DNA of 64,000 bases from Candidatus Nomurabacteria bacterium (GTDB lineage Bacteria; Patescibacteriota; Saccharimonadia; JAGOAT01), in contig JACKGM010000001.1 of assembly GCA_020639315.1 (NCBI GenBank), positions 18,511 to 82,510 of the forward strand, read 5' to 3'. The translations under genes and the position numbers were made by a program. Shown here one piece after another: positions 5,168-57,299 of the stretch. The notes under the pieces were generated by a model. It did not search any database, was not told the origin of the DNA, and saw only the letters and a list, made by a program, of their open reading frames with translations. Position 1 is the first letter of the stretch, and each line of letters begins with the position of its first letter.

Positions 5168-7129
5168 CTAACTAGCAGCCATAGGTGTTTGATTGAGAGC
5201 AGCGGGCCTATCGTCCTCTCCCTTTAACTGCAGAGTACGTTTCCCAAACCCAGCTGGGTTGGCAAAGCTATGATTGAATGAGGGTGCATTCCTATGACGC
5301 CCTTTACCTTCTCTTCGAGTAACTGCCATACTTGTATATGCACCGCCATCACATATCTGTAAAATTCGACACATCTCCATAAAGGCATTTATTTGTTCAT
5401 CCGTTATTTGCTCTAAGCCATAAAATTTTTGTAGCGTCGAGATCGCTAACTCTCTCATTGCTTTTTCTGCATATTCATCAGCTCCTGCTACATTGATTTG
5501 AAATGCTAATTCTTCTCCATCTCCAATAACTGCAAGCAGTAGCTCCTTTAGCCCTGTATCTACTCCCAGCTTATCGAAGAAAGCATCTGCTTGGTTCACA
5601 TTATATTTTTTCTGTAGGTGCTTTTCATTACGAGCAGAAGCAGCAGGCTTTCCAAGGTCGTGAGCTAAAATTGCTAATCGTAATGGCTTGAGTAACTCAA
5701 CTGGTAATTTGTCCGCAAAGTTTTCATCAAAATTGCGCAAAACTGTTTCAGTATGTTCAGCAAGAGTGAATCCTTCCCAGTTGCCTGTCTCACTTCCGAA
5801 AATTTCACCATAACCCTCTAGCGTCCTTGCAGCCTCTACTAATCTTTCGGGTTTAACATGCAAATCATCGAGTAGACTTATAAGTAAGTGGTTTTCTCTC
5901 GGTTTTTCACCTAGTACGCCGATACTAATGGCCATATTGCCCAGTAGTCTCCATCTCTCTTTACGGCTAGCTTTCAGATCCTCTGTGGTAGTAGTTTTTT
6001 CTAAGTCAAAAAAGGTTACTATTGAAAACGATCGACCTAGAGTACCTGATTTAATATGCTGTCTAGCACCAACAATATGTGCTTCTCGTAGGAACCGCTG
6101 GATATATTCCATATTTATGGGTACTAACTGTTCCTGATCATTTATCTTAAGCTCGGCTGTGACTATACCATCTTGGTGCTCTAATAACTGATTAATGAAG
6201 TATATAGGATACCTACTAAGAAGAGAACGAGCGTTAACACTACCTGCTAGCTGTAATACAACCGATTCTTCTACATTCGCCATACTGGCTATCGAGGTGA
6301 TATCTTCGGCATTGAAGTAACCTTTTTGTGGTAGTTTTTGCATTGCAGTCGATATTGGCAGAGCCTTATCCCGATCTTCGAAATCAAGGGGTGACCCCTC
6401 AGCTACTGGTATGAGTAAGCTCTTCATTGCCTCCAAGTATTGTGTTTTTGCTTCTGGATCAAGCTTAGAAGGATTAAATGTAAAATCCATTACAGTGGCT
6501 TCAGTATCTGGGCTTGTAATCTGATGTAGTTCTACTTGGCTGCCAGGTACCACTTGCCTTAATAAATAATCTCTCTGCTCAGGGGATAACCGTTGCTCGA
6601 GATATTCGGCTTCACTATGCCTTCGGAGGTCACCAAACTCTAGTGGTATCAACTTACCATGTTGATCTAATAATCTATTATAATATTCAGTACTCACAAA
6701 CTCTGGATCTTGTTTAATTTTTTCCTGCAATCGTAGTTCACGTTCACGATTACTACGATCAAGCCACTCTTGCTTCTCTTCTGGTGTATAACTATCAACC
6801 TTATTTAAAAAATATTGATAATAAGCTCCGCCATCCTCTTGTCGTATACGGTGTTCAGCAAATTCTTTTGCTATATCACTATTTGCAGTATACAGTGCTG
6901 GTCGCTGATTTAGATTTAGGTTACCAGTATTATTCCCACCGTTGCTGAAATTAGGGTCAACCGTCCATTGATCTGGTTTATCCGTCTCGCCAACACGACC
7001 ATGGTATGTCTCAAGTTCGGATAGGGGTATAAGCACCCCTAGTTCCCTTAGCGTATGTAATGCACGAAATTTTTCGGCATCCTCCATACTGCGTGAATGC
7101 TCAGTTCTGGTTTGAAATTGTTCTGACAT
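5168..7129 (-). CDS. Large HD-domain protein with uncharacterised N-terminal two thirds
   Basis: About 653 aa from MSEQFQT. The C-terminal HD phosphohydrolase motifs are EHTETVLRNF...LAILAHDLGKPAA. The N-terminus contains YHGRVG...RPALYTANSDIAKEFAEHR, which recalls RES/ART-fold hallmarks (weak). Confidence 0.7.
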   Translation of the reverse strand: MSEQFQTRTEHSRSMEDAEKFRALHTLRELGVLIPLSELETYHGRVGETDKPDQWTVDPNFSNGGNNTGNLNLNQRPALYTANSDIAKEFAEHRIRQEDGGAYYQYFLNKVDSYTPEEKQEWLDRSNRERELRLQEKIKQDPEFVSTEYYNRLLDQHGKLIPLEFGDLRRHSEAEYLEQRLSPEQRDYLLRQVVPGSQVELHQITSPDTEATVMDFTFNPSKLDPEAKTQYLEAMKSLLIPVAEGSPLDFEDRDKALPISTAMQKLPQKGYFNAEDITSIASMANVEESVVLQLAGSVNARSLLSRYPIYFINQLLEHQDGIVTAELKINDQEQLVPINMEYIQRFLREAHIVGARQHIKSGTLGRSFSIVTFFDLEKTTTTEDLKASRKERWRLLGNMAISIGVLGEKPRENHLLISLLDDLHVKPERLVEAARTLEGYGEIFGSETGNWEGFTLAEHTETVLRNFDENFADKLPVELLKPLRLAILAHDLGKPAASARNEKHLQKKYNVNQADAFFDKLGVDTGLKELLLAVIGDGEELAFQINVAGADEYAEKAMRELAISTLQKFYGLEQITDEQINAFMEMCRILQICDGGAYTSMAVTRREGKGRHRNAPSFNHSFANPAGFGKRTLQLKGEDDRPAALNQTPMAAS

Positions 7130-11301: not shown

Positions 11302-11565
11302 GTCATCCTCCGAAACCCGCCCCTTGTCTTGTCATCCTCCGAAGCTCGGAGAGCTTACGGGGGATCTAGCATTTTGCATTTCCTATGACCAATTCAAATA
11401 CTGGATCTCCGGTATTACCCTTCGGGTAATCCGAAGATGACAGAGGAGAGAATTGTCATCCTCCGAAACCCGGAGGGTTTACGGGGGATCCAGTATTTCT
11501 GCATTGTGCGCCGTCATCCTCAAAGTCTAGCGACCTTCATCTGGAGCTAGACTTTGGGGATCCAG
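11302..11565. repeat. Family-A hairpin repeat cluster (5 units, both orientations) between convergent genes
   Basis: Units present: GTCATCCTCCGAAGCTCGGAGAGCTTACGGGGGATCTAG; rc GTCATCTTCGGATTACCCGAAGGGTAATACCGGAGATCCAGTATTTGAAT; GTCATCCTCCGAAACCCGGAGGGTTTACGGGGGATCCAGTATT; GTCATCCTCAAAGTCTAGC...GCTAGACTTTGGGGATCCAG. Confidence 0.92.
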
Positions 11566-13077: not shown

Positions 13078-13156
13078 ATTGTCTCCATTGTATTAATATC
13101 TATCCCCATCATTTAGATTTTAATCCAAGCTTAAGTAATTTGCAATCCGCGATACT

Positions 13157-13320
13157 TATAGCAAGTTAAAAACAAAACCAGACTTTTGACCCAACTATAG
13201 AGTCTATAAAGCTAGTTTTCTTACTCACCATATCTATGGATATGGCTCTTAAGAAGAACTAACTTTCTAGTTCTCTATAGTACAGCTCAAATTGTCCGGT
13301 TTTGTTTTGAGCTTGCTATA
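13157..13320 (+). mobile_element. MITE family B, full copy (164 bp foldback)
   Basis: Termini are TATAGCAAGTTAAAAACAAAACCAGAC...CCGGTTTTGTTTTGAGCTTGCTATA. The whole element is an imperfect palindrome centred on CCATATCTATGGATATGG. Confidence 0.9.
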
Positions 13321-14475: not shown

Positions 14476-14557
14476 TTTGTCATCCGCCCTTTGACTGAAG
14501 GAAAAGTCGATAATCCAGATTTCTTGAACACATTGCGTTATTTACTTTTGTTTTATT

Positions 14558-14718
14558 AACCCTGTTGCCATATAACCTCACGGCTTCAAAACTGCCATTT
14601 TTGCTCCAGACTAGCAAAACACTTCGCAGCGTAACTCCTGTTATGCTTTGTCGTGTTTTGGTATTCTGGAATAAAAATCATCAGCTTTGAACTCGCAAGT
14701 TTATATGGCAACAGGGTT
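14558..14718 (+). mobile_element. MITE family F (161-bp core, ATT on both flanks)
   Basis: Perfect 18-bp TIR AACCCTGTTGCCATATAA / TTATATGGCAACAGGGTT. It is 159/161 identical to the copy at 35363-35523. Confidence 0.92.
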
Positions 14719-14756
14719 ATTGTTAGTTTTCTTGAGTATCTGAAGGCGTAAAAGTG

Positions 14757-18289: not shown

Positions 18290-18657
18290 TAGGATTGAAT
18301 TCTGGTAATGCGAAATACTGGATCCCCCGTAATCCTCTATGAGGATTCGGAGGATGACAATACACCCCAGTCATCTTCCAAAATCCTGTAAGGATTTATG
18401 GGAGATCCATCTCCCCAGCGTCATCCTCGACTTTTCCGCCCTTCATTTGAAGGAAAAGTTGGGGATCCAGACTTCTAGATAATGGGTTAGGGTTTAGGTA
18501 ATACAGTTACTTTTTATGCTTATTGTTAGTTTTCTGGATACCCAGAGCAAGCTCTGAGTATGACGGATGCAAATGCAGAGATACTGGATCCCCCGTAAGT
18601 TCTCCGAACTTCGGAGGATGACAGAAGAGGAGTAGGTTTCGGAGGATGACAAGACAA
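18290..18657 (+). repeat. 368-bp direct repeat, copy 1 (itself a cluster of family-A hairpin units)
   Basis: I read it base for base as identical to 20559-20926 (offset 2269 bp), running from TAGGATTGAATTCTGGTAATGCG to GGAGGATGACAAGACAA. Confidence 0.93.
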
Positions 18658-20558: not shown

Positions 20559-20926
20559 TAGGATTGAATTCTGGTAATGCGAAATACTGGATCCCCCGTA
20601 ATCCTCTATGAGGATTCGGAGGATGACAATACACCCCAGTCATCTTCCAAAATCCTGTAAGGATTTATGGGAGATCCATCTCCCCAGCGTCATCCTCGAC
20701 TTTTCCGCCCTTCATTTGAAGGAAAAGTTGGGGATCCAGACTTCTAGATAATGGGTTAGGGTTTAGGTAATACAGTTACTTTTTATGCTTATTGTTAGTT
20801 TTCTGGATACCCAGAGCAAGCTCTGAGTATGACGGATGCAAATGCAGAGATACTGGATCCCCCGTAAGTTCTCCGAACTTCGGAGGATGACAGAAGAGGA
20901 GTAGGTTTCGGAGGATGACAAGACAA
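20559..20926 (+). repeat. 368-bp direct repeat, copy 2
   Basis: Identical to 18290-18657. It is followed (20927-20996) by extra tandem family-A half units. Confidence 0.93.
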
Positions 20927-28620: not shown

Positions 28621-29048
28621 ATTTGTATCCGTCATACTCAGAGCTTGCTCTGGGTATCCAGAAAACTAACAACCAACATTAAAAGTAACTGGGTTAACTC
28701 AATACATTCAATCCATTATCTAGAGTTCTGGATCCCCAACTTTTCCTTCAAATCAAGGGCGGAAAAGTCGAGGATGACCCAAACTCCTGTCATCCTCCGA
28801 AACCCGTCCCTCTCTTGTCATCCTCCGAAACCCGCTCCTTGTCTTTGTTATCCTCCGAAGCTCGGAGAGCTTACGGGGGATCCAGTATTCCTGCATTGCC
28901 TTGAGATTCAATTCAAATACTGGATCTCCGGTATTTCTCTAAAGAGAAATCCGAATATGACACGAAGGGGGGCGGAAATTTGGGCTGTTGGCAGAGAAGG
29001 GATTGTCATCCTCCGAAACCCGGAGGGTTTACGGGGGACCTTGTATTG
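28621..29048. repeat. Family-A hairpin repeat cluster
   Basis: Begins GTCATACTCAGAGCTTGCTCTGGGTATCCAG and includes tandem half units and head-to-head doublets. It ends GTCATCCTCCGAAACCCGGAGGGTTTACGGGGGACC. Confidence 0.92.
28789..28935 (+). repeat. 147-bp direct repeat, copy 1 (family-A composite) left of the RelE/DinJ cassette
   Basis: 144/147 identical to 29750-29896. The differences are two G/A changes in CCGAAACCC versus CCAAAACCC, and GTTATCC versus GTCATCC. Confidence 0.9.
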
Positions 29049-29070
29049 CTACTTTATAAACATCTATCCC

Positions 29071-29331
29071 CTACCTGTAGAGCTGACTATGTGTGCCGAC
29101 AGCTACAAAGAGTACCTTACTTTCAGTTATGACTTGAAAATGTAGCCTTAAATCGCCTCCTGCACTTATAGAACGAAACCCTAACCACTCCCCTTTTAAC
29201 CCGTGATTACGAAGCGAGGGATTGGCTACGTCTTGTAAAAATAAAGCAACAGCAGCTCTAGCCTGTTGCTGTTTCTTGAGAGGTAGTTTCTCGAATTGTT
29301 TATTGAACACTTTAGTAAAATCAATGTCCAT
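29071..29331 (-). CDS. RelE/ParE superfamily toxin (YafQ-like)
   Basis: 86 aa. FNKQFEKLPLKKQQQ...LRNHGLKGEWLGFRSISAGGDLRLHF matches the RelE/ParE fold pattern. It lies 8 nt downstream of the antitoxin gene. Confidence 0.7.
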   Translation of the reverse strand: MDIDFTKVFNKQFEKLPLKKQQQARAAVALFLQDVANPSLRNHGLKGEWLGFRSISAGGDLRLHFQVITESKVLFVAVGTHSQLYR

Positions 29332-29338
29332 AATTTTG

Positions 29339-29620
29339 CTATTTCATTAAGCTATCCAGGTGGGCTAATGCCCCTTTTGCCCCCTTAGTATGTGTAATAT
29401 CACGGTCAGCTACATAATCGGCTTTAGCGTCCCTCATGATCTGTTCTAGGTAGGGAGTAGGCTCTAGGTTAGTACTCAAAACGACACGCCTATCTCGTAA
29501 AGTCTGTTTTACGACCATATTTACAAGAGCGGTACTAGACACACCTAACTCGGTAGCAAAAGTCTTTAGCTCCTGTTTGGTTTTCTCGTCAATCTTAATA
29601 CTTAACTGTACGCTACCCAT
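29339..29620 (-). CDS. RelB/DinJ-like ribbon-helix-helix antitoxin
   Basis: 93 aa. The N-terminal VQLSIKIDEKTKQELKTFATELGVSSTALVNMVVKQTL is an RHH-type segment like DinJ. Confidence 0.65.
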   Translation of the reverse strand: MGSVQLSIKIDEKTKQELKTFATELGVSSTALVNMVVKQTLRDRRVVLSTNLEPTPYLEQIMRDAKADYVADRDITHTKGAKGALAHLDSLMK

Positions 29621-29749
29621 AGTATAGTCATTGTATATCTATCGTATATGTATGTCAATACGATCGATATTGCTTTACAGCCCATAGTATATTCAATGGG
29701 GCCTGAAAGTATCTATCCTGATAACGACTTTAGTGAACGGTATTGTACC

Positions 29750-29896
29750 GTCATCCTCCAAAACCCGTCCCTCTCTTGTCATCCTCCAAAACCCGCTCCT
29801 TGTCTTTGTCATCCTCCGAAGCTCGGAGAGCTTACGGGGGATCCAGTATTCCTGCATTGCCTTGAGATTCAATTCAAATACTGGATCTCCGGTATT
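29750..29896 (+). repeat. 147-bp direct repeat, copy 2, right of the RelE/DinJ cassette
   Basis: See copy 1. The offset is 961 bp. Confidence 0.9.
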
Positions 29897-30103
29897 ACCC
29901 TTCGGGTAATCCGAAGATGACACGGGAAGGGATTGTCATCCTCCGAAACCCGGAGGGTTTACGGGGGATCCAGTATTCCTGCATTGCCTTGAGATTCAAT
30001 TCAAATACTGGATCTCCGGTATTACCCTTCGGGTAATCCGAAGATGACACGGGAAGGGATTGTCATCCTCCGAAGTTCGGAGAACTTACGGGGGACCTTG
30101 TAT
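29750..30103. repeat. Family-A hairpin repeat cluster with an internal ~100-bp tandem duplication
   Basis: The block ...CCAGTATTCCTGCATTGCCTTGAGATTCAATTCAAATACTGGATCTCCGGTATTACCCTTCGGGTAATCCGAAGATGACACGGGAAGGGATTGTCATCCTCCGAA... occurs twice in tandem. Confidence 0.92.
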
Positions 30104-30129
30104 CTCGTACTCCTACCAGGAGGCCACCC

Positions 30130-32167: not shown

Positions 32168-32204
32168 AGATTGTCCAAATTCCTCGATCCATCCTCTATG
32201 TCTT

Positions 32205-32372
32205 GTCATCCTCCGAAGTTCGGAGAACTTACGGGGGATCCAGCATTTCTGTATTACTGGGCAACTAATTCAAATACTGGATCTCCGGTATTACCCTCCG
32301 GGTAATCCGAAGATGACGAGGAGAGGGTTGTCATCCTCCGAAGTTCGGAGAACTTACGGGGGATCCAGTATT
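32205..32372. repeat. Family-A hairpin repeat cluster between convergent genes
   Basis: GTCATCCTCCGAAGTTCGGAGAACTTACGGGGGATCCAG occurs twice, flanking an inverted GGTATTACCCTCCGGGTAATCCGAAGATGAC unit. Confidence 0.92.
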
Positions 32373-32409
32373 CCTGTATTTAATCGGTATTCACTTCAAA
32401 TACCAAGCA

Positions 32410-34143
32410 CTACCCTATCTGATCAAACCCGACCAGCTCCACGCGATCTTGATCTCGATGCTTGAGCTCAACCTGATCACTAGCTAATGTCTTAGCACTA
32501 ATAACCAAGCGAATCGGATTACCAATCAAATCCGCATCGGCAAACTTCTCCCCTGCCCGAATATCAAGACGATCATCCCAGAGTACCTCAAGTCCTTGAC
32601 TAGTCATCGACTGGTATAATTCCTCCGCCTTGGTGTAAGCTGGCTCCTCTACACTCCTAGCTAACGAGATCAGATGATATCTGTATGGTGCTACCACTTC
32701 AGGCCAAATTATTCCCTTCTCATCATGATCAAGCTCGACTATTGTAGCAATAGTTCTACCTACCCCTATCCCGTAACATCCCATATAGTATGGCTTTCTA
32801 TCTCCATTCTGATCGGTATAATTGGCATTATCCATCAGTGATGAATAATGATACCCTAGCTGGAAAATATTCCCAACCTCTACACCTTTCTTGCCTTCAA
32901 GTGGTCCCCCTGAGACTGCAATATACCCTGGCTGAGCCAAGGCAATATCTGCGACCTTATCAGCTATAAAATCACGCTGATAATTGATGCCAAGATAGTC
33001 AAAATTATCCTGATTGGAGCCGCTGGCAGCATTGACCATCTTGACGACCGAATCATCGATTACTACTGTCAAATCTTCATCCTCTGGCAAGTTATCTCTA
33101 ATATCGACTGGAGAAATAAAGCCTGGGTAGCTACCTAATCGCTCGATTACTTCTTGGTCGGTCAATGGTTCGATCTGGCTGACATCTACCTGATGCGCGA
33201 GCTTTACTTCATTGACATCCAAATCTGCCCTGATGCAAGCCAAGACTAGTCGATTCTTGCCGGTCTTGTAGGCAACATTTTTGATATGATTGATTAGACT
33301 CAATTGATGGAATTCTACTCCATCTGCCATAGTCTTACCTCGCTTGGCTTCTACCAATTTAAGCTGTTGAGGCTCACTACCTGAACTGATCTTCTCTGGC
33401 TTTGGTCCACTATAATCATAGCTTTTATCAAAAACTGCTACATCCTGATGAGCCTGATAAGAGCCAGATTGATCGACTAGATAGTCACTTTCTCCTGCCT
33501 CGGTGTCAACAATATACTCGTGACAATACTCACCCCCGATATAGCCATTGTCAGACTCTACGCGGTGAGCATCGAGACCCAGTCTAGTGAAGATCGCCTG
33601 ATAAGCATCAGACATAGATTGATACTCTTTGGCAAAATCAGCCTCAGAACTATGAAAAGAATAAGCGTCCTTCATAATAAACTCCCGGACCCGCAGCAAC
33701 CCTCCCCTAGCCCTCAATTCATCTCGAAACTTCATCGAAAATTGGTAGAGATTGAGTGGCAAATCTCGATAGCTAATGTTAAATTTCCTGATCAGATCGA
33801 CTACCATTTCTTCAGCCGTACCCCCCAAGACAAATCTTGCTCCTCTCCTATCTTCGACCTGCATCAGCTCGAAGCCCGCTGCCTGATCTCGATTGGTCTC
33901 CTGCCAGAGATCCAGCGAGTGCAAGACTGGGGTGATAATTTCTTGAGCACCCCTCTTGTCCATTTCTGAGCGGATTACTTCGATCAATTTGTGCTGCACC
34001 CTGATCCCAAGTGGCAGTAAATAATACCTTCCAGCACTAGACTCCCTGATAAACCCTGCTTGAGTCAGGAGCCTGTGTGAATCGACTTTGTAATCCAGCC
34101 CAACTTCCTTACTGGGTTTGGCAAAAAGCTTTGAAAATTTCAT
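32410..34143 (-). CDS. proS: Proline--tRNA ligase
   Basis: 577 aa with class II aaRS motifs (FRDELRARGGLLRVREFIMKDAYSF; GCYGIGVGR) and an internal editing-domain-sized insertion. Confidence 0.92.
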   Translation of the reverse strand: MKFSKLFAKPSKEVGLDYKVDSHRLLTQAGFIRESSAGRYYLLPLGIRVQHKLIEVIRSEMDKRGAQEIITPVLHSLDLWQETNRDQAAGFELMQVEDRRGARFVLGGTAEEMVVDLIRKFNISYRDLPLNLYQFSMKFRDELRARGGLLRVREFIMKDAYSFHSSEADFAKEYQSMSDAYQAIFTRLGLDAHRVESDNGYIGGEYCHEYIVDTEAGESDYLVDQSGSYQAHQDVAVFDKSYDYSGPKPEKISSGSEPQQLKLVEAKRGKTMADGVEFHQLSLINHIKNVAYKTGKNRLVLACIRADLDVNEVKLAHQVDVSQIEPLTDQEVIERLGSYPGFISPVDIRDNLPEDEDLTVVIDDSVVKMVNAASGSNQDNFDYLGINYQRDFIADKVADIALAQPGYIAVSGGPLEGKKGVEVGNIFQLGYHYSSLMDNANYTDQNGDRKPYYMGCYGIGVGRTIATIVELDHDEKGIIWPEVVAPYRYHLISLARSVEEPAYTKAEELYQSMTSQGLEVLWDDRLDIRAGEKFADADLIGNPIRLVISAKTLASDQVELKHRDQDRVELVGFDQIG

Positions 34144-34149
34144 AGCCTA

Positions 34150-34158
34150 ATTGTATCA
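34150..34158 (-). promoter_or_regulatory. Extended -10 (TGATACAAT) 6 nt before the proS ATG
   Basis: Minus strand reads TGATACAAT-TAGGCT-ATG. Confidence 0.55.
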
Positions 34159-34211
34159 CCTTTCTCCACAGTAAGACATTCCCCTAAAAGTGACCCCCAT
34201 TTTTGCCATTT

Positions 34212-34270
34212 CAAGGGCACCCCTTGAGCATTTATATCTGTAAAAAAATTATTTTCAAGGGCACCCCTTG
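34212..34270 (-). repeat. Twin-palindrome module, type D (CAAGGGCACCCCTTG x2)
   Basis: Palindromes at 34212-34226 and 34256-34270 (44-bp period), with core TTTATATCTGT. It lies between divergent proS and infC. Confidence 0.9.
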
Positions 34271-34360
34271 AAAATAGCAAAAGCCCTAGAAGGTTGGATT
34301 TGTGTATTTTTAAGAAATATGATAAGTTAGGTAATGAATAAATGATGAAGATTATCAAGT

Positions 34361-34897
34361 TTGAATAACAAAGCGTCACAACCTAGGCGTAACTTCGTGC
34401 GGATCAACCAGCAGATCCGTGCTGATCAAGTGCGAGTATTGTCTGAAGATAAAGAGATGCTGGGGGTAATGAGTGTATCCGAAGCTCTTAATAGAGCCAA
34501 AGAGTCTGAACTAGACTTGGTAGAGATATCTCCAAATGCCAAACCTCCTGTGGTACGCATCGTCGACTGGGGTAAATACCGCTATGAAAAAGAAAAACAA
34601 GCCAAGCAAAATCAGAAAAATCAAAAGCAACAGGAGCTCAAACAAATCCGCTTGAGTCTCAAGATTAGTCCTCACGATCTAGATATCAAGATCGGCCAAG
34701 CCAAAAAGTTTTTGACCAAAGGTCACAAAGTCAAGCTAACCGTCAGGCTCAAAGGGCGCGAGATGCATCATAGCTACCTTGGTAAAGAGGTATTGGAGAA
34801 ATCTCTGGAAATCCTTGCTGACTCTGCCAAAGCCGATAGCACCGTCCGTAAATCAGGTCGGGAGTTCTCGATCACGGTCTCACCTGTCAAGAAGTAG
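34361..34897 (+). CDS. infC: Translation initiation factor IF-3
   Basis: 178 aa with RINQQIRADQVRVLSEDKEMLGVMS and KPPVVRIVDWGKYRYE. The only in-frame start after the upstream stop (34346-34348) is TTG 34361, consistent with the atypical starts known for infC. Confidence 0.9.
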   Translation: MNNKASQPRRNFVRINQQIRADQVRVLSEDKEMLGVMSVSEALNRAKESELDLVEISPNAKPPVVRIVDWGKYRYEKEKQAKQNQKNQKQQELKQIRLSLKISPHDLDIKIGQAKKFLTKGHKVKLTVRLKGREMHHSYLGKEVLEKSLEILADSAKADSTVRKSGREFSITVSPVKK

Positions 34898-34901
34898 TCT
34901 T

Positions 34902-35126
34902 CTACCAGATATTTGGGTCACGATTTAGTAAAGCTTTCCAGAAATCGAATATTCTTTTCGCTCTACCCCTCATACCTTCAGCATTCTTGCCTAACCTACT
35001 AAACAGATGTGTCTTAATGCTGTCGATAAGGGCTGTCGCCCTAGATGAACCCACATTAAGATCTAACCCTGATTCTCCACGATAATCATCTTTAAAGATG
35101 CCTAAATTGGGCTTAATATCCCTCAT
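34902..35126 (-). CDS. Hypothetical small protein
   Basis: 74-aa ORF starting 2 nt after the upstream ORF stop. No motif recognised. Confidence 0.4.
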   Translation of the reverse strand: MRDIKPNLGIFKDDYRGESGLDLNVGSSRATALIDSIKTHLFSRLGKNAEGMRGRAKRIFDFWKALLNRDPNIW

Positions 35127-35128
35127 TT

Positions 35129-36072
35129 CTAACTCACCTCCTGCCCTAGTGCTGCTCGTATTACAAACCTTGTGACCCCTGTATTACCTAGATCTAATGG
35201 GGCTACATAGCCCCTGGGTACCCTATAATCTTCCCTCGTATCGACAATCTGCCGCCTTACCCTATCTGGCACTTTCTCAACCTCTGATTTCCTATTACGA
35301 TAGTTCACTACTCTAGAGAGACCAACTGCCCCTAAGAAGGCACCTAGCCCGGCAAATCTATTAACCCTGTTGCCATATAACCTCACGGCTTCAAAACTGC
35401 CATTTTTGCCCCAGACTAGCAAAACACTTCGCAGCGTAACTCCTGTTATGCTTTGTCGTGTTTTGGTATTCTGGAATAAAAATCATCAGCTTTGACCTCG
35501 CAAGTTTATATGGCAACAGGGTTATTGCTCGAAATATCATTAACCCCCAGCCCAGCCATTCCACTAGTAGGAATATCTACAAACCAGTCCCTCAGCCTTT
35601 GGCGATTTTGATATTTTCTTATAGTCTCTGGATATTTTTTGGATTCAGCATAAAACTTCAATCCGTTGATTAGGGCTTGCATCAAGCGCTGATTGTATCT
35701 TATAGTGAACTCTTCCCACTCTAATTTCTCCTCAGAATCTAGGTCGGGCAATAGCTTTAAGTAGATTTGACCTAAAGAGACCAATAACCTTGCATTATCA
35801 CCATCTTGCTCTGGTTGAATAAACTGCCAACTATCACCTTCATCGTCTACTGACAGGCCAGTAAAGACAATCTCTAGTTCTGATAAATCTGGCTTATCCT
35901 CAATATTGGGCAGCCCAAAAGCATCATAATACCCTCTCAAGTATTGAAGGAGATCCTTTTGCCATTCTTCCTCAACTAAACCCTCACCAAATAGCATATG
36001 AAGTGCTGGACTATCCTCAATGGTAATCTTAGGTAGTTTTCTCTCGTAACTATTGTTTGTTTCAGGGGTCAT
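35129..36072 (-). pseudogene. Orphan gene split by a 161-bp MITE (track ORFs 35506..36072 and 35129..35422)
   Basis: The MITE core 35363-35523 sits between the two ORFs. It supplies the stop of the upstream part and the first 20 codons of the downstream part. Removing 161, 164 or 167 bp joins them in frame (...GVNDISS-N-RFAGLGAFLG...), giving about 259 aa. Confidence 0.7.
35363..35523 (+). mobile_element. MITE family F inserted in a coding region
   Basis: Same TIRs, flanked by ATT (35360-35362 and 35524-35526). It separates two same-strand ORFs that become one on excision. Confidence 0.92.
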
Positions 36073-36114
36073 ATTCCCACAGCCTCTCCTTTATTAATAA
36101 CCACTAATCTAACA

Positions 36115-36278
36115 TATAGCAAGCTCAAAACAAAACCGGACAATTTGAGCTGTACTATAGAGAACTAGAAAGGTAGTTATTCTTAAGAGCCATATTCATA
36201 GATATGGTGAGTAAGAAAACTAGCTTTATAGACTCTAGAGTTGGGTCAAAAGTCTGGTTTTGTTTTTAACTTACTATA
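36115..36278 (-). mobile_element. MITE family B, full copy
   Basis: TATAGCAAGCTCAAAACAAAACCGGACAATTTGAGCTG...GGTCAAAAGTCTGGTTTTGTTTTTAACTTACTATA. Confidence 0.9.
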
Positions 36279-36330
36279 AATACGAACAAACTGCAAGCAT
36301 AAGCCTAATTAACCCCAGACCAATAACTAT

Positions 36331-37299
36331 CTAACCATCACTTTTTGTCAGCCTAGGATGACCCACCCTAAGGCAAATCACTACACCTCCTAAATCAGCC
36401 TGACCTATTGGATCACCTTCTTCACTGTCATCCTTATGCTCTTCCTTATACTTTAGAGAAATAGGCATTACGGCTACTCGACTCTCCCTACCCTCTCTAC
36501 CCATCATCCACTCCACTAGCCTCGATAATCTGCGTTTCCTCTCTATCTCTATCTTGATACGGGCACTATCGACTACGCCCTCGATTAACGCCTTATTCAA
36601 CCAACCATCAAAATTTAAGGCATCTTGCTCAGAAATATAACCAGAATTAGCCATGATATATTTTTCACAGATACCAAAAAACTGCGTTCTATTATTTCCC
36701 TCAAGTCCTGCCGCATCTGCAGTCGCCTCTGCTTGACTCATGCCCCCTGATACATACTCATTATAATCTAGATTCTTAGAAGCTGCATGCTGATCAGTGA
36801 ATTCAAACCACTGGTCTAGCTTTTCTTTCTGCCCGATATCCAGCTTACTCACTAGTGATGTATACTCTAGCCTGATTGTTTCTAGTGACAGTTCAAGCTT
36901 ACTATCAGCCAATGCATTTTGATAAACCTTCGGTAAAGATATGACTAGGATTGACCTATCCTCCAACTGCTGTTTAGCCATACCTAGCCCACCCAGTCTC
37001 TCAATAAGTTCAGCACTTTGATCAGAATGACCCCGCCTATCACAGGGGTGTATTTCTGCTATGCTACCCCCGCTCAACTCCCCACTATCAAAAAACACGA
37101 TCAACTGATCTAGCCCCAAAATACCCTTTTTGGATTCAGCGTCTATAGCCTCATTAACGAATCTCCAAAAAGCCTCTTCCAATCGATCAAAGTCAATAAC
37201 TCGCCCCAAGGCTTGATTGCTACTATCTATACAGATAGCCACTTCAGACGTTGGTCTTTTCTCGCCAGTACCAGTATTTGCCCCTTCCCCATTTACCAT
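36331..37299 (-). CDS. Hypothetical protein
   Basis: About 322 aa from MVNGEG (rc ATG 37297-37299), preceded by GAGGGAG 5 nt upstream. The track start 37317 is TTG. No motif recognised. Confidence 0.6.
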   Translation of the reverse strand: MVNGEGANTGTGEKRPTSEVAICIDSSNQALGRVIDFDRLEEAFWRFVNEAIDAESKKGILGLDQLIVFFDSGELSGGSIAEIHPCDRRGHSDQSAELIERLGGLGMAKQQLEDRSILVISLPKVYQNALADSKLELSLETIRLEYTSLVSKLDIGQKEKLDQWFEFTDQHAASKNLDYNEYVSGGMSQAEATADAAGLEGNNRTQFFGICEKYIMANSGYISEQDALNFDGWLNKALIEGVVDSARIKIEIERKRRLSRLVEWMMGREGRESRVAVMPISLKYKEEHKDDSEEGDPIGQADLGGVVICLRVGHPRLTKSDG

Positions 37300-37400
37300 G
37301 CTACTCCCTCTTGCCAATTATTAATAGCTGTATTTAACCTCTAATATACCATGTAATTCAATGTTTTGCAAGCATCAGGCTTACCTCAACCTAGCTTAAG

Positions 37401-37429
37401 TTGCTATTTATCCAAATATAAGATATAAT
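37401..37429 (+). promoter_or_regulatory. Sigma70-type promoter of rpmI-rplT (TTGCTA-17-TATAAT), -10 ends 7 nt before the ATG
   Basis: TTGCTA at 37401-37406, a 17-nt spacer, TATAAT at 37424-37429, then CACCATT and ATG 37437. No SD. Confidence 0.6.
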
Positions 37430-37436
37430 CACCATT

Positions 37437-37631
37437 ATGCCAAAATTGAAGACTAGCAAAACCGCCAAGAAGCGAATCAAGGTCACCTCGAGTGGACTTT
37501 TGATGCGTCGCAGAGCTACTCGCGCTCACAAATTGTCAATCAAATCAGGTGCTAGAAAGCGGGAATTTACCAAAGAGTTTGTGTTAAACAATACCGAAAC
37601 CAAGAAAATCAAGAAATTAATCGGAGTCTAA
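37437..37631 (+). CDS. rpmI: 50S ribosomal protein L35
   Basis: 64 aa: MPKLKTSKTAKKRIKVTSSGLLMRRRATRAHKL. Confidence 0.95.
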   Translation: MPKLKTSKTAKKRIKVTSSGLLMRRRATRAHKLSIKSGARKREFTKEFVLNNTETKKIKKLIGV

Positions 37632-37632
37632 T

Positions 37633-37977
37633 ATGAGAGTCAAGAGAGGTACCACTGCTCGCAAGCGACACAAGAAGATGATTAAAGCCGTTAAAGGCTA
37701 TAGCCATATCCGTAGATCAAGCTATCGCAAAGCCAAAGAAGCCTGGATCAAGGCTCAAACCTACGCCTACCGTGACCGTAGAAACCGCAAGCGAGATTTT
37801 CGTGGTCTCTGGATCACTAGGATTAATGCGGCTGCCAGACAAAATGGTCTTAGCTATTCACAACTAATCAACCTGCTTGCTAAAAGTAATATCAAGCTAG
37901 ATCGTAAGATCCTTTCCGAAGTAGCATTCAACCACCCAGAAAGCTTCAAGGCGATTGTTGATACTGTCAAAAAATAG
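37633..37977 (+). CDS. rplT: 50S ribosomal protein L20
   Basis: 114 aa: MRVKRGTTARKRHKKMIKAVKGY...YAYRDRRNRKRDFRGLWITRINAAAR. Confidence 0.95.
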   Translation: MRVKRGTTARKRHKKMIKAVKGYSHIRRSSYRKAKEAWIKAQTYAYRDRRNRKRDFRGLWITRINAAARQNGLSYSQLINLLAKSNIKLDRKILSEVAFNHPESFKAIVDTVKK

Positions 37978-37989
37978 TCTTATCATCGC

Positions 37990-38384
37990 GTCACCAAACC
38001 AAAACCCCGCAGGGATTTATGGGAGACCCACCTCCTCTGTCATCTTCGGATTACTCTTTAGAGTAATACCGGAGATCCAGTATTTGAGTTAGCCACAGGC
38101 AATATGGAATGCTGGATCCCCCGTAAGTTCTCCAAACTTCGGAGGATGACAATACAATACACAATGCCGAATACTGGATCCCCCGTAAACCCTCTGGGTT
38201 TCGGAGGATGACAAGACAATGCCATTAACTTAAGAAAAAGCCAGTATCTTTTGACATCCTATTAAAGCTTGATTTGTACATTGAATAAAACTTGCAAAAG
38301 CTTAAGTTAATGGCATTGAGATGACAGGAGAAGGACGGGTTTCGGAGGATGACAATCCTCTCCTCCGTCATCTCCGGTATTTGA
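37990..38384. repeat. Family-A hairpin repeat cluster downstream of rplT
   Basis: Includes GTCACCAAACCAAAACCCCGCAGGGATTTATGGGAGACCC, GTCATCTTCGGATTACTCTTTAGAGTAATACCGGAGATCCAGTATTTGAG and several inverted units. Confidence 0.9.
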
Positions 38385-38388
38385 ATTA

Positions 38389-39054
38389 CTAACCAAAAAT
38401 CAACTGGATAAAGTCCTGACTAGCTTGTTCTAGCTGGCCTTCTCTATTGATAACAAAATCAAACCAACCCTGACCCTGATTCTTCCTCGCCCATTCAAGC
38501 TCAGTCTTTGTAGTGCCCAGCCTAGTAGCTAGCTTACCCCTATCTATCTCATCTCCACTCTCCTGCCAACGCCTGAGAATTCTACGCTCAAGTATCTGAA
38601 GATTACTGTCCAGATCATTTAATGGTGCAGGAGCAATGAATATTACTTTCAAATCAAGCTCCCTTCTAATAATCTCGATGCCTTGATATTCTATCTCGAG
38701 TAGTACCTTCCTGCCCGCCTCAAGCGGTCTTAGGATTGATAAAATCGGTGTACCATAGTAATTGCCATGTGCCATGGCATATTCCAGGAATTCACCCTGA
38801 TCAATCTTTTGCTCAAACTCAGCTTTGCTCAAGTGGCAATACGCTTTGTATGGTCTGATGTCACCAATCTCGGCCACTTGATCTCGTTGCTCTCTAGCTC
38901 TAGAAGTAGCACTGACTGGAATCACCAATTTTTGATCACCCTCTAGCCTGGAATTGACCATCTGTTCCAGCGCATTCTTCCCAGCTCCCGACGGGCTGAC
39001 GATCGCATACAGATTACCTTGACTCAACTCTCTTAGGTGATCTATGTCTGACAT
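38389..39054 (-). CDS. gmk: Guanylate kinase
   Basis: P-loop IVSPSGAGKNAL and FLEYAMAHGNYYGT. Start placed at MSDIDHL (rc ATG 39052-39054), because the track extension runs into a MITE terminus. Confidence 0.8.
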   Translation of the reverse strand: MSDIDHLRELSQGNLYAIVSPSGAGKNALEQMVNSRLEGDQKLVIPVSATSRAREQRDQVAEIGDIRPYKAYCHLSKAEFEQKIDQGEFLEYAMAHGNYYGTPILSILRPLEAGRKVLLEIEYQGIEIIRRELDLKVIFIAPAPLNDLDSNLQILERRILRRWQESGDEIDRGKLATRLGTTKTELEWARKNQGQGWFDFVINREGQLEQASQDFIQLIFG

Positions 39055-44934: not shown

Positions 44935-45029
44935 ATCGTATGTTATAATTTTACCATGAGTATTACTCCTCTAAACCAGCAATCCTCTGCGAGTCTAGTG
45001 GGAGCAAAAGCGGACAATCTTTGGCTACT

Positions 45030-45193
45030 TATAGCAAGTTAAAAACAAAACCAGACTTTTGACCCAACTCTAGAGTCTATAAAGCTAGTTTTCTTCTTCA
45101 CCATATCTATGGATATGGCTCTTAAGAAGAACTAACTTTCTAGTTCTCTATAGTACAGCTCAAATTATCCGGTTTTGTTTTGAGCTTGCTATA
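45030..45193 (+). mobile_element. MITE family B, full copy
   Basis: Near-identical to 13157-13320 over its full length. Confidence 0.9.
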
Positions 45194-45945: not shown

Positions 45946-46746
45946 TCAAGCCACGCTCTTGCGATAACCTGCCGGTTTTTGCCTATTTTGACTTCGGCTC
46001 TTGATTACTGGCTTTGGGCTGGTTTTGATGCCTGCAGGCTTGTCGCTACTGGACGATTGAGATCTGCTGGATTGATTAGATTTTGACTGCTGTTTGGGTC
46101 TAGTAGATTGGTTGTCAGGGTTAGCTACAGTCTGGGCTGGCTGGTTAGCGATCGGAGTCCAACCATCTGGTTTATTGGCTGTTTTCTTAGATTGGGTTCG
46201 ATTGTTGTCACTTGACCGCGTTGCCCGAGAAGCCTGAGGCCTGCTATCACTTCGCCTATTGTACGGCTTATACTCAATCTGCCTTCTTAGATCACTGACA
46301 AAGCTGATTTCAACTGTAGCATTCTTGAGCAGAGCTGAATAATTCCTCTGACTAGGAACCAATAGGTGAGCTAGCTTATTACGCTTGCCCAAATATTCGA
46401 CCAAGCAATAGAAGTCCCCGTCACCTGTGACTAGAACTGCTTGGTCATAATTATCAATATCTGTCATTGCCTGAAGTACCATCTCAGCATCAGTATTGCC
46501 CTTGATATCCCCCGCTTGATTTTCAAGAGTTGGCTTAAACATCAAAATAAATCCTGCCTCTTGCAATCCCTTATAAAGATCTGAATTGCTATCAACAAAA
46601 CCAATAAACATATAGGCTTTGGTAACCTGGTAGGTATCTTCCAAATATTTGCGAAACTTACGATAATCCAGCTTCCAGCCATGGCTGCGAATCGCCATAT
46701 TTAAGTTTTGACTATCAACAAAAGCGTAATTGTATACTTGACTCAT
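45946..46746 (-). CDS. NYN/LabA-like domain protein with disordered basic C-terminus
   Basis: N-terminal YAFVDSQNLNMAI...AVLVTGDGDFYCLVEYL. The C-terminal 100 aa or so are S/Q/K/R-rich. Confidence 0.7.
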   Translation of the reverse strand: MSQVYNYAFVDSQNLNMAIRSHGWKLDYRKFRKYLEDTYQVTKAYMFIGFVDSNSDLYKGLQEAGFILMFKPTLENQAGDIKGNTDAEMVLQAMTDIDNYDQAVLVTGDGDFYCLVEYLGKRNKLAHLLVPSQRNYSALLKNATVEISFVSDLRRQIEYKPYNRRSDSRPQASRATRSSDNNRTQSKKTANKPDGWTPIANQPAQTVANPDNQSTRPKQQSKSNQSSRSQSSSSDKPAGIKTSPKPVIKSRSQNRQKPAGYRKSVA

Positions 46747-48849: not shown

Positions 48850-49252
48850 TACTACTACTCCATCTGGAGTCTCATGCAGTAAAGAATAAGCTGTAGCCCG
48901 TCATATCTTTTAACATTACTATTCAAATTAAGTTGCCAAAGTGCCAAATCAAACCCCAGTCTCGTTTCTTCTGTGGGAGGCTAGATCACCAACGTTGAAG
49001 TCCTCTGGGAATACTAGCTCACTATTCATATCCATACTGATATTGTAACACCTTGGCAAGAAATAAAATATTAGATACATAAACGGGATACTCGCCACTC
49101 GTTGCTTACATCAAATCACTATCGAATTGAATACAAGTCTTGAATATCCCGTATTTACAATTCGATATTGGCTAGTGCGCCGATATTAATGTGATGTAAG
49201 CAAATTAATCCTAGCATAGTGCTTACGCTTCTAGCAACCATTTCACCCATTT

Positions 49253-49311
49253 CAAGGGCACCCCTTGCAGTTTTCTATCTGTAAGAGATGCTTTTTCAAG
49301 GGCACCCCTTG
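49253..49311 (-). repeat. Twin-palindrome module, type D
   Basis: Palindromes at 49253-49267 and 49297-49311 (44-bp period), with core TTTCTATCTGT. Confidence 0.9.
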
Positions 49312-50424: not shown

Positions 50425-50750
50425 GTAGTTTCCCCTGGAACCTTGGGAGATGACAATAACCTCTGCTGTCATTTTCCAAAATCCCGCCCCTATTCTCGTT
50501 ATCTTCCAAATTTCCTTTAGGAAATTATGGGAGCTCCACCCTCCTCCTGTCATCTTCGGATTACCCCTTGGGGTAATACCGGAGATCCAGTATTTGAATT
50601 AGACCCATAATAATGCAAAATACTGGATCCCCCGCAAGTTCTCCGAACTTCGGAGGATAACAATGCTCCCTCTGTCATCTTCCAAATTTCCGTAGGAAGT
50701 TATGGGGCACTTTCCTATTACTATTTAAGAGATCCAGTATTTGAATTTGG
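50425..50750. repeat. Family-A hairpin repeat cluster in a divergent intergenic region
   Basis: Includes GTCATCTTCGGATTACCCCTTGGGGTAATACCGGAGATCCAGTATTTGAATT, rc GTTATCCTCCGAAGTTCGGAGAACTTGCGGGGGATCCAGTATT, and GTCATCTTCCAAATTTCCGTAGGAAGTTATGGGG. Confidence 0.9.
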
Positions 50751-56171: not shown

Positions 56172-57299
56172 TCAAATCACCAAGTCCTTAGGGGACTTGG
56201 CTAAATTGATTGAACCCTGCTCAGTCACTACTAAGGTATCCTCGATCCTTACTCCCCCGACTACCCCCAGAGTATTGGCCTTGGGATCGGTATAGTATAG
56301 TCCCGGCTCAATCGTAATCACTTGATTTTGCCACAGCACTTCACCCGGAGTAGGGTTTGGCTGCTCGTGGATATCTAGACCAACTCCATGACCTAAGCCA
56401 TGGAAATAACCTTGCTGATGACCGTCTTGACCCAACTTCGTTTCAAAGCCCTGCTTGACAAACTTTTTCCTAATCGCTTGGTCGATCTCATAGTAGCTTG
56501 CCCGTTGCTTGACCTTTTTTATTGCCTTGGTCTGGGCTTGGTAGACAGCATCATAAAGGGCCAGCTGGCCATCTGTAGCCTGCCCCCTGATCACTGTCCT
56601 ACTCATATCAGTATAGTATAAGCTCTCAATCGACCTCGGGAAGATATCAAACACGATAAATTGATTGGCTAAGATTGGCCCACTACCTTGACAGTGAGGG
56701 TCAGCGGTATCTAAACCTGATGATAGTATCATACCCTCTGGGTTATCATAGCCGAGCCTAGCTAGCTCGACTCGCAAAAGCTGTTTGACCATTTCACTGG
56801 TAACAATCTGATCCCCTCGATAAAGGTATTGGCCACGAATCTTAGCCTGACTAAGGAAATCGATCGCTTGGGCGTATACCAGATCGACCGCTACTTGTGC
56901 CTGACGAATATAGGCAATGTCTTGATCTGACTTAACCTCCCTCTGATCGAGGAAGCTATCATAAATTTTATCCAAAATAAGATCAGGAAACTCTTGTCTC
57001 AAATGCATATAGTATTGCAGATCGATTGACCCGTCTAGCCAGAGCTTGCCAATCTTATACTCCTTGAGGTACCCGATAATAGAACCAATCAGCCCAGATT
57101 GAGCTCCCTTATAAAAATCTACCACTAAATCTGCCTTGGAAGTAGCTTTCGCTATATCATACTCTAGAGGACTGATAAAAAGAACTTTTTTATCATCGTG
57201 AATCAACAACCCAAATGGGTCAGGTGAATCGAACCCTGATAAATAATAGAGGTTTGAATCCTGCCTAGATCGACCGATATAGAGATTTGCACTCTTCAT
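56172..57299 (-). CDS. Xaa-Pro aminopeptidase / M24 family peptidase
   Basis: 375 aa with M24 metal ligands in FDIFP...DMSRT...HGLGHGVGLDIHE...TIEPG...GGVRIEDT. Confidence 0.85.
   Translation of the reverse strand: MKSANLYIGRSRQDSNLYYLSGFDSPDPFGLLIHDDKKVLFISPLEYDIAKATSKADLVVDFYKGAQSGLIGSIIGYLKEYKIGKLWLDGSIDLQYYMHLRQEFPDLILDKIYDSFLDQREVKSDQDIAYIRQAQVAVDLVYAQAIDFLSQAKIRGQYLYRGDQIVTSEMVKQLLRVELARLGYDNPEGMILSSGLDTADPHCQGSGPILANQFIVFDIFPRSIESLYYTDMSRTVIRGQATDGQLALYDAVYQAQTKAIKKVKQRASYYEIDQAIRKKFVKQGFETKLGQDGHQQGYFHGLGHGVGLDIHEQPNPTPGEVLWQNQVITIEPGLYYTDPKANTLGVVGGVRIEDTLVVTEQGSINLAKSPKDLVI

Follow-up and report, generated by a model that had tools for sequence, protein, structure and literature searches.

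In Escherichia coli and Bacillus subtilis, the genes for initiation factor IF3 (infC) and for the ribosomal proteins L35 (rpmI) and L20 (rplT) follow one another on the same strand as one operon, and their co-transcription depends on this contiguity. We analysed the corresponding locus in a stretch of 64,000 nucleotides (nt) from contig JACKGM010000001.1 of assembly GCA_020639315.1 (the window; positions are counted from its first letter). According to Pfam, the window contains all three genes in the canonical order, all on the plus strand and, as in the two model operons, with rplT starting 1 nt after the end of rpmI. Unlike in these operons, infC, which ends at 34897, is separated from rpmI, which starts at 37437, by 2,539 base pairs (34898-37436). 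This gap holds three open reading frames (ORFs) on the minus strand, A, B and C, and two miniature inverted-repeat transposable elements, MITE-A and MITE-B. Since 2.5 kb of opposite-strand genes now lies between infC and rpmI, the contiguity on which co-transcription depends is lost, and transcription of the three genes as one unit is not possible. We consider it likely that the locus results from an old insertion, in one lineage, of a three-gene cassette into an ancestrally contiguous infC-rpmI-rplT cluster.

Read from rpmI towards infC, the insert begins with ORF A (36331-37299, minus strand; 322 amino acids (aa); H6792_00275), which has the sequence GAGGGAG upstream of its ATG. MITE-B (36117-36278), an insert of 162 nt, occupies the spacer between A and B. 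ORF B is cut into a 5' fragment (35527-36072, minus strand; codons 1-182), which runs on to a stop within MITE-A at 35506 and is annotated as a 188-aa gene (H6792_00270), and a 3' fragment (35129-35362, minus strand; codons 183-259), which was severed by MITE-A (35363-35526; an insert of 164 nt including the target-site duplication) and which in a related strain (P0002) forms one uninterrupted frame with the 5' fragment. ORF C (34902-35126, minus strand; 74 aa) starts 2 nt past the stop of B and ends, in convergent orientation, 4 nt from the infC stop. Shine-Dalgarno-like sequences precede A, B and C. The coordinates given in the preliminary description of this locus were all correct. Short-read contigs from several samples (L001, L005-L007, L092 and L093) match the window at 100% identity over 32345-35502 and 36243-38318, and this independent agreement excludes an assembly artefact.

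A relative more distant than the sister strain described below is represented by two metagenomic contigs (L003 and L004), whose IF3 and ProRS proteins are 89% and 94% identical to those of the window, while synonymous sites are saturated. In both contigs, a C-like and a B-like gene converge on infC, ending 5 nt from the infC stop. The C-like gene encodes 66 aa, is 52% identical to C over the last 25 aa, and shares with it the motif DFxKALLxRDPNxW. The B-like gene of L003 overlaps the C-like gene by 8 nt; its product is 27-28% identical to B, has the sequence VSLGQIY in common with it, and appears to lack the approximately 75 C-terminal residues of B. The next relative by IF3 outside this clade (L009, 54% identical) has the canonical cluster. 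We surveyed the distance between infC and rpmI in 80 species-representative genomes, 74 of which were informative. Of the informative loci, 19 bear the label Saccharibacteria or Saccharimonadales, and in every one of them rpmI lies 11-98 nt past infC; most other phyla surveyed are likewise contiguous. The suggestion made earlier that the genes were inserted into an ancestrally contiguous cluster thus agrees with these 19 loci and with L009. The insertion would have taken place in the stem of a genus-level clade and been inherited since, because L003 and L004 carry B-like and C-like genes while deeper relatives keep the canonical cluster. The opposite possibility, also raised in the preliminary description, that relatives share the same genes at this position as an ancestral arrangement, is correct within the genus-level clade, but more distant relatives do not have them.

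The description of the site as normally inviolate did not hold. Although a tight infC-rpmI-rplT cluster was found in 44 of the 74 informative genomes, 30 lack it. In 22 genomes, mostly of Alphaproteobacteria and Planctomycetes, the 3 kb or more that follow infC contain no L20 gene, and in eight others 0.55-1.4 kb is inserted: 0.55-0.6 kb in two, and 1.2-1.4 kb between infC and rpmI in six genomes of Thermoleophilia/Solirubrobacterales (L047, L048, L057, L064, L065 and L068). The one gap of this group that was examined (L047) contains an opposite-strand gene for UDP-GlcNAc 2-epimerase (wecB; 5757-6875, minus strand; Pfam Epimerase_2, E-value (E) 1e-101). The resulting arrangement, infC-[wecB]-rpmI-rplT, resembles that of the window in having an opposite-strand insert at the same place. 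It differs in that the insert is a single gene for a well-known enzyme, whereas in the window it comprises three orphans confined to one genus-level clade. The gap in Thermoleophilia is an independent split of the same cluster.

The two MITEs were added to the cassette later. MITE-A has inverted arms of 38 nt with the termini AACCCTGTTGCCATATAA and TTATATGGCAACAGGGTT, is flanked by AAT, and is 99% identical to a copy at 14554-14722. MITE-B has inverted termini of 27 nt (TATAGCAAGC... and ...ACTTACTATA) and a TA(T) duplication; its copies at 13153-13320 and 45026-45193 are 95-96% identical to it, and further, more diverged copies occur elsewhere. Both elements are precisely absent from a contig of a sister strain (L002; ENA ERZ27309317; 90-97% nucleotide identity to the window), which therefore provides an empty site for each, and in which the spacer between A and B measures 96 nt. 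(Positions 1414-1448 of this contig, k141_547344 in the public ENA record, at its end, are the Illumina adapter GATCGGAAGAGCACACGTCTGAACTCCAGT.) The premature stop of ORF B comes from MITE-A; excision of the element in silico restores a frame of 259 aa, and the related strain (P0002) encodes exactly the predicted junction (...DISSNRFAGLGAF...). The empty sites in L002, together with the 99% identity of MITE-A to a second copy, show that the two MITEs inserted recently and secondarily, and in this strain only. They are short and non-coding, and in their size of about 160 nt, terminal inverted repeats, short target-site duplications, multiple copies, lack of an ORF and empty sites they match bacterial MITEs, of which the Correia elements of Neisseria and the RUP elements of Streptococcus are examples. 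The window yielded neither a parent insertion sequence nor a transposase for them, and nothing useful was found in the literature on MITEs of Saccharibacteria or on the synteny of the infC-rpmI-rplT cluster. In a comparison with Rfam, MITE-B (36115-36279) matched the plant MITE-derived microRNA precursor families MIR1435 and MIR7996 at 27-30 bits; these matches, far below the gathering scores of 94-119, are due only to its long hairpin shape.

To assess the coding capacity of the insert, we used a codon model derived from 44 long ORFs located elsewhere in the window. In their own frames, A, both halves of B and C scored 0.17-0.33 bits per codon, similar to the host genes (0.24 ± 0.08), and in the other five frames all of their scores were negative. 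The G+C content of A, B and C is 0.40-0.44, and their G+C content at third codon positions (GC3) is 0.38-0.39, compared with 0.41 ± 0.05 for the host, so that in the comparison of composition and codon usage with the flanks proposed in the preliminary description the insert lies within the host range. Comparison of ORF B with its L002 allele gave a ratio of non-synonymous to synonymous substitution rates (dN/dS) of 0.18 (p 5e-7; 21.5 synonymous and 14.5 non-synonymous differences). A differs from its counterparts in L002 and in L091, another contig, by indels of 12 nt and 3 nt, and C has an indel of 3 nt; all of them are in frame, and no contig observed has a broken frame of A or C. Between the last 26 codons of C and its homologue in L003/L004, the differences are distributed 6/6/17 over the three codon positions, a third-position bias indicating selection on the protein. 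A, B and C are thus genuine protein-coding genes with host-like codon usage and G+C content. As described before, they are coding and tightly arrayed, and the linkage of B and C is kept in the distant relative.

None of the three proteins has a recognizable family or fold. Searches of Pfam, PHROG, PADLOC and NCBIfam with A, B, C and the B-like protein of L003 gave no match. For A, B and C, no catalogued defence protein of PADLOC appeared even at E<=1, with Pfam and NCBIfam likewise empty; a single weak PHROG match in the cassette was to a baseplate protein (E 0.17). In a word-indexed search of 5.8 billion proteins, A retrieved itself only, and A and B together retrieved themselves and one sister-strain allele. 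A full HMMER search of 1.84 billion representatives with A returned A itself and one spurious match (P0124, E 8e-5); we rejected the latter as a homologue, since it is a repeat protein with eight Big_7 repeats whose score adds up the contributions of six copies of one 42-residue segment. Sequence searches of the PDB gave nothing below E 0.05. The AlphaFold models are too poor to use (mean predicted local distance difference test score, pLDDT, 49 for A and 32 for B), and in a Foldseek comparison of the low-confidence model of A, no PDB entry matched at E<=0.001. Two scans of the JGI metagenomes with B and three scans of the viral sequences of IMG/VR with A, B and C detected no relative. These family, structure and protein searches support the earlier statement that the orphans carry no recognizable motif. 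A is acidic (isoelectric point (pI) 4.85) and soluble, B is also acidic, and C is small and basic (pI 10.1); signal peptides or membrane segments were predicted in none of them.

The rate of change offers an explanation for the lack of homologues. Between the window and L003/L004, B and C have reached a non-synonymous divergence (dN) of 0.92 and 0.65, respectively, compared with 0.057 for IF3 and 0.041 for ProRS, so that the B and C proteins evolve at about 11-16 times the rate of IF3. At such rates, homologues beyond the genus would be undetectable, and an orphan need not be a newly invented gene; speed of change alone could account for the orphan status. Lineage-specific orphans of the Candidate Phyla Radiation (CPR; Patescibacteria) are similar in belonging to no family, having no fold assignment and being narrowly distributed. 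What distinguishes the present case is that both the coding status and the rate of change are measurable and that the position inside a translation cluster is unusual for the phylum (0 of the 19 other informative loci of Saccharibacteria).

Several observations weigh against our interpretation of an old insertion of functional genes. Only a few short contigs from metagenomes (1.2-1.8 kb) underlie the comparison, and L003 and L004 end inside the B-like gene, so A and rpmI are beyond their reach in that lineage. The C-terminal third of A has a dN/dS of 0.52 relative to L002, and C has accumulated too few changes against L002 for an informative dN/dS. ORF B is disrupted in both strains sampled, so the cassette may be non-functional. 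Promoter-like matches occur in the region at the chance rate (8 found, 8.3 expected from shuffled sequence). In addition, contig L091 (positions 1-1707, aligned with 36335-38048 of the window) is a mosaic, which complicates the reading of dN/dS: it matches the window without a difference over 36700-37880, which covers 600 nt at the 5' end of A together with the spacer and rpmI, differs twice further along in rplT, and diverges by about 9.5% over 36335-36690, where it carries an allele of the L002 type. Such a pattern arises either when strains recombine or when a contig is assembled as a chimera.

The disruption of ORF B bears directly on the state of the cassette. In the window it is caused by MITE-A; in L002, a TGG codon at about codon 37 is replaced by TGA (L002 ~553-555, window ~35962-35964), in a contig sequence where a sequencing error is possible, and the publicly annotated gene (P0002) begins again at a later TTG. 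We infer that the cassette is a dispensable accessory cytoplasmic module, and that it is partly decaying, as B is broken by the MITE here and by the TGG to TGA change in the sister strain. The MITE-A cut lies near the natural end of the L003 homologue, however, and for this reason the truncated product of 188 aa may keep the conserved core. The preliminary description had regarded the orphan genes as one functional module, a view that is weakened by the disruption of B in both strains and by the MITEs being recent passengers. The speed of change, the variation between strains and the tolerance of disruption would fit a conflict-type or strain-specific function, for example in phage or host interaction, which we offer as a rather doubtful guess.

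A further step along the same line is to regard the cassette as already dead, with A, B and C as remnants awaiting deletion and the split operon as the only living consequence. Both lesions of B would be accounted for in this way, as would the dN/dS of 0.52 in the C-terminal third of A, the indels in its acidic low-complexity tail and the lack of homologues and of a confident fold. Nevertheless, the dN/dS of B indicates that purifying selection acted for most of the time over which the strains diverged, A and C have kept their frames, and the motif of C has been retained through synonymous changes despite synonymous saturation. The position of the MITE near the natural end of the L003 homologue makes the lesion in the window less telling, and the reduced genomes of Saccharibacteria are expected to delete dead DNA. 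We therefore consider a dead cassette unlikely.

Two readings assign significance to the position of the genes. According to the first, A, B and C would form a previously unknown, fast-evolving functional module, acting for example in conflict, host interaction or translation, whose placement was selected and couples its expression with that of IF3, L35 and L20, because the cassette converges on infC without a terminator and diverges from a leaderless rpmI-rplT. In E. coli, IF3 disfavours leaderless mRNAs, and if this reading were true, a leaderless rpmI-rplT uncoupled from infC could create a new regulatory link; we regard it as improbable. The second, more specific reading, in which the proteins are ribosome-associated factors or regulators of IF3, L35 and L20 at a selected position, is in our judgement very improbable. 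It could draw on the adjacency to infC, kept in a relative at saturated synonymous divergence, on the 137-nt divergent spacer common to A and rpmI, on the basic character of C, and on the possible overlap of the infC and C transcripts. Yet simple inheritance predicts a retained position equally well, the proteins show no similarity to ribosomal, RNA-binding or translation factor families, an identity of 27-34% where IF3 keeps 89% is atypical of translation machinery, and B tolerates disruption.

A recently acquired mobile or phage-derived island, brought in by horizontal transfer, might be suspected from an opposite-strand set of orphans in a conserved operon, from the presence of MITEs and from the weak baseplate match. 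The typical marks of such islands are missing: we found no integrase or transposase Pfam domains, no direct or inverted repeats at the ends of the insert and no tRNA gene between 30000 and 42000, and there are no paralogues of the genes in the window. The route of insertion has thus left no trace. Moreover, G+C, GC3 and codon scores are indistinguishable from those of the host, IMG/VR holds no relatives, no PHROG match falls below E 0.1, the cassette is present in a relative with saturated synonymous sites, and the MITEs arrived after the island. This explanation is already largely refuted, and we give it very little weight. That the three ORFs arose by chance in spacer DNA without coding function, as the missing homologues and low-confidence structure models might suggest, is refuted by their frame-specific host-like codons, the low dN/dS of B, the in-frame indels and the third-position bias, and its likelihood is negligible.

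The insertion has consequences for the expression of the genes on both sides. Gene infC (34361-34897, plus strand; Pfam IF3_N E 2e-30, IF3_C E 2e-25) has an ambiguous start, as the longest ORF begins with TTG at 34361 (178 aa) and public calls use GTG at 34397 (166 aa; P0004); the IF3_N match on the longest ORF starts at residue 15, and no Shine-Dalgarno sequence is evident at either start. No terminator was found between the convergent infC and C, where the sequence folds no more stably than shuffled sequence. infC would be transcribed alone, its transcript probably running into the 3' end of ORF C. On the other side, rpmI (37437-37631, plus strand; Pfam Ribosomal_L35p E 1e-15) and rplT (37633-37977, plus strand; Pfam Ribosomal_L20 E 8e-42), the latter with GGAG upstream, are probably coupled. 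A consensus scan found a promoter-like site, TTGCTA-17-TATAAT, at 37401-37429 on the plus strand. Its TATAAT ends at 37429, 7 nt before the rpmI ATG, and only CACCATT, with no Shine-Dalgarno sequence, lies between. The earlier proposal that rpmI has its own promoter is therefore plausible, and rpmI-rplT would be transcribed from within the 137-nt divergent spacer shared with ORF A. For ORF A itself, the consensus scan alone points to a site TTGCAA-17-TATATT (37343-37371, minus strand), with TG before the -10 hexamer, located 43 nt upstream of the ATG.

Leaderless mRNAs, described in Actinobacteria and Deinococcus-Thermus, have a -10 hexamer 5-9 nt before the start codon and no Shine-Dalgarno sequence; in the window this signature is known from sequence alone. 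Among the 53 ORFs that encode 120 aa or more, 11 have a hexamer that matches TATAAT in at least 5 of 6 positions and ends 5-9 nt before the first start codon, as compared with 3.4% of internal in-frame starts (p 1.6e-6), and about half of the window ORFs have no Shine-Dalgarno-like sequence. Examples of this -10-to-ATG geometry are located at 7428, 45946-46746 (minus strand), 47970 and 56172-57299 (minus strand). The arrangement at rpmI has the features of a leaderless gene, with a -10 hexamer about 6-8 nt before the start and no Shine-Dalgarno sequence. Because the geometry is enriched throughout the window, rpmI-rplT is most likely expressed as a leaderless mRNA.

It had also been claimed that the tight spacing of promoter and start codon leaves no room for the translational operator bound by L20. 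This argument fails: outside Gammaproteobacteria the E. coli L20 operator was not found, and the element of Bacillus acts as an attenuator of transcription that is located upstream of infC instead of at rpmI (PMC3616713, PMC1865079); relatives with gaps of 11-14 nt are equally without room. An Rfam search of 33800-38600 at E<=1 detected no L20 leader or other ribosomal-protein leader, a result to be read with the caveat that the long-range pseudoknot site of E. coli is without an alignment in PMC3616713. The spacer has no stable structure, as 37300-37445 folds no better than shuffled sequence (z +1.06). Given the known distribution and location of the operators, the absence of an L20 leader is expected and not caused by the insertion.

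The IF3, L35 and L20 proteins of the window are most similar to those of Saccharibacteria/Saccharimonadales, with identities of only 52%, 56% and 64%. These low best identities place the host, which carries the NCBI label 'Ca. Nomurabacteria', as a deep-branching member of, or neighbour to, Saccharibacteria. Comparisons with IF3, L35 and L20 revealed no closer species representative in the GTDB-based collection, a first genome scan with IF3 peptides gave no match, and an exact look-up of the L35 of the window found none on record.

The locus provides a clean, datable example of a conserved translation operon split in a reduced genome. The events may be ordered as insertion of the orphan genes, acquisition of a host-like composition and, finally, insertion of the MITEs. 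The downstream ribosomal genes were probably rescued by a minimal leaderless-mRNA promoter. Leaderless initiation, which seems common in the window and is suggested to be frequent in the lineage, would make operon splitting cheap and lower the cost of breaking operons. The locus also adds three protein families that have a measured coding signal and no homologue. The kinds of event involved are known: many other bacteria also have a split cluster, and the group is rich in orphan genes. The current understanding stands.

Other repeats of the window were noted in passing. One recurrent architecture consists of two identical short palindromes (CAAGGGCACCCCTTG in the spacer between the divergent proS and infC) around a conserved TTTATATCTGT core, the palindrome differing between families. 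Such sites, which the consensus scan reads as terminator-like on both strands, are located at 34197-34270 (the proS-infC spacer), 49238-49311, 14857-14927/43534-43604 and 43398-43460/56099-56161. Hairpin repeats resembling repetitive extragenic palindromes (REP; GGATCCCCCGTAAG...CGGAGGATGACA) form dense intergenic arrays, often in tandem at a spacing of about 125 nt; they occur downstream of rplT (38037-38225) and at more than 25 other sites, for example 11322-11505, 28838-30112, 32196-32380 and 50584-50672. Finally, an exact duplicate of 300 nt (18290-18589 and 20559-20858) has its copies 2,269 nt apart, and the repeat families around them recur at the same interval; a segment of about 2.3 kb thus appears to have been duplicated in tandem recently.

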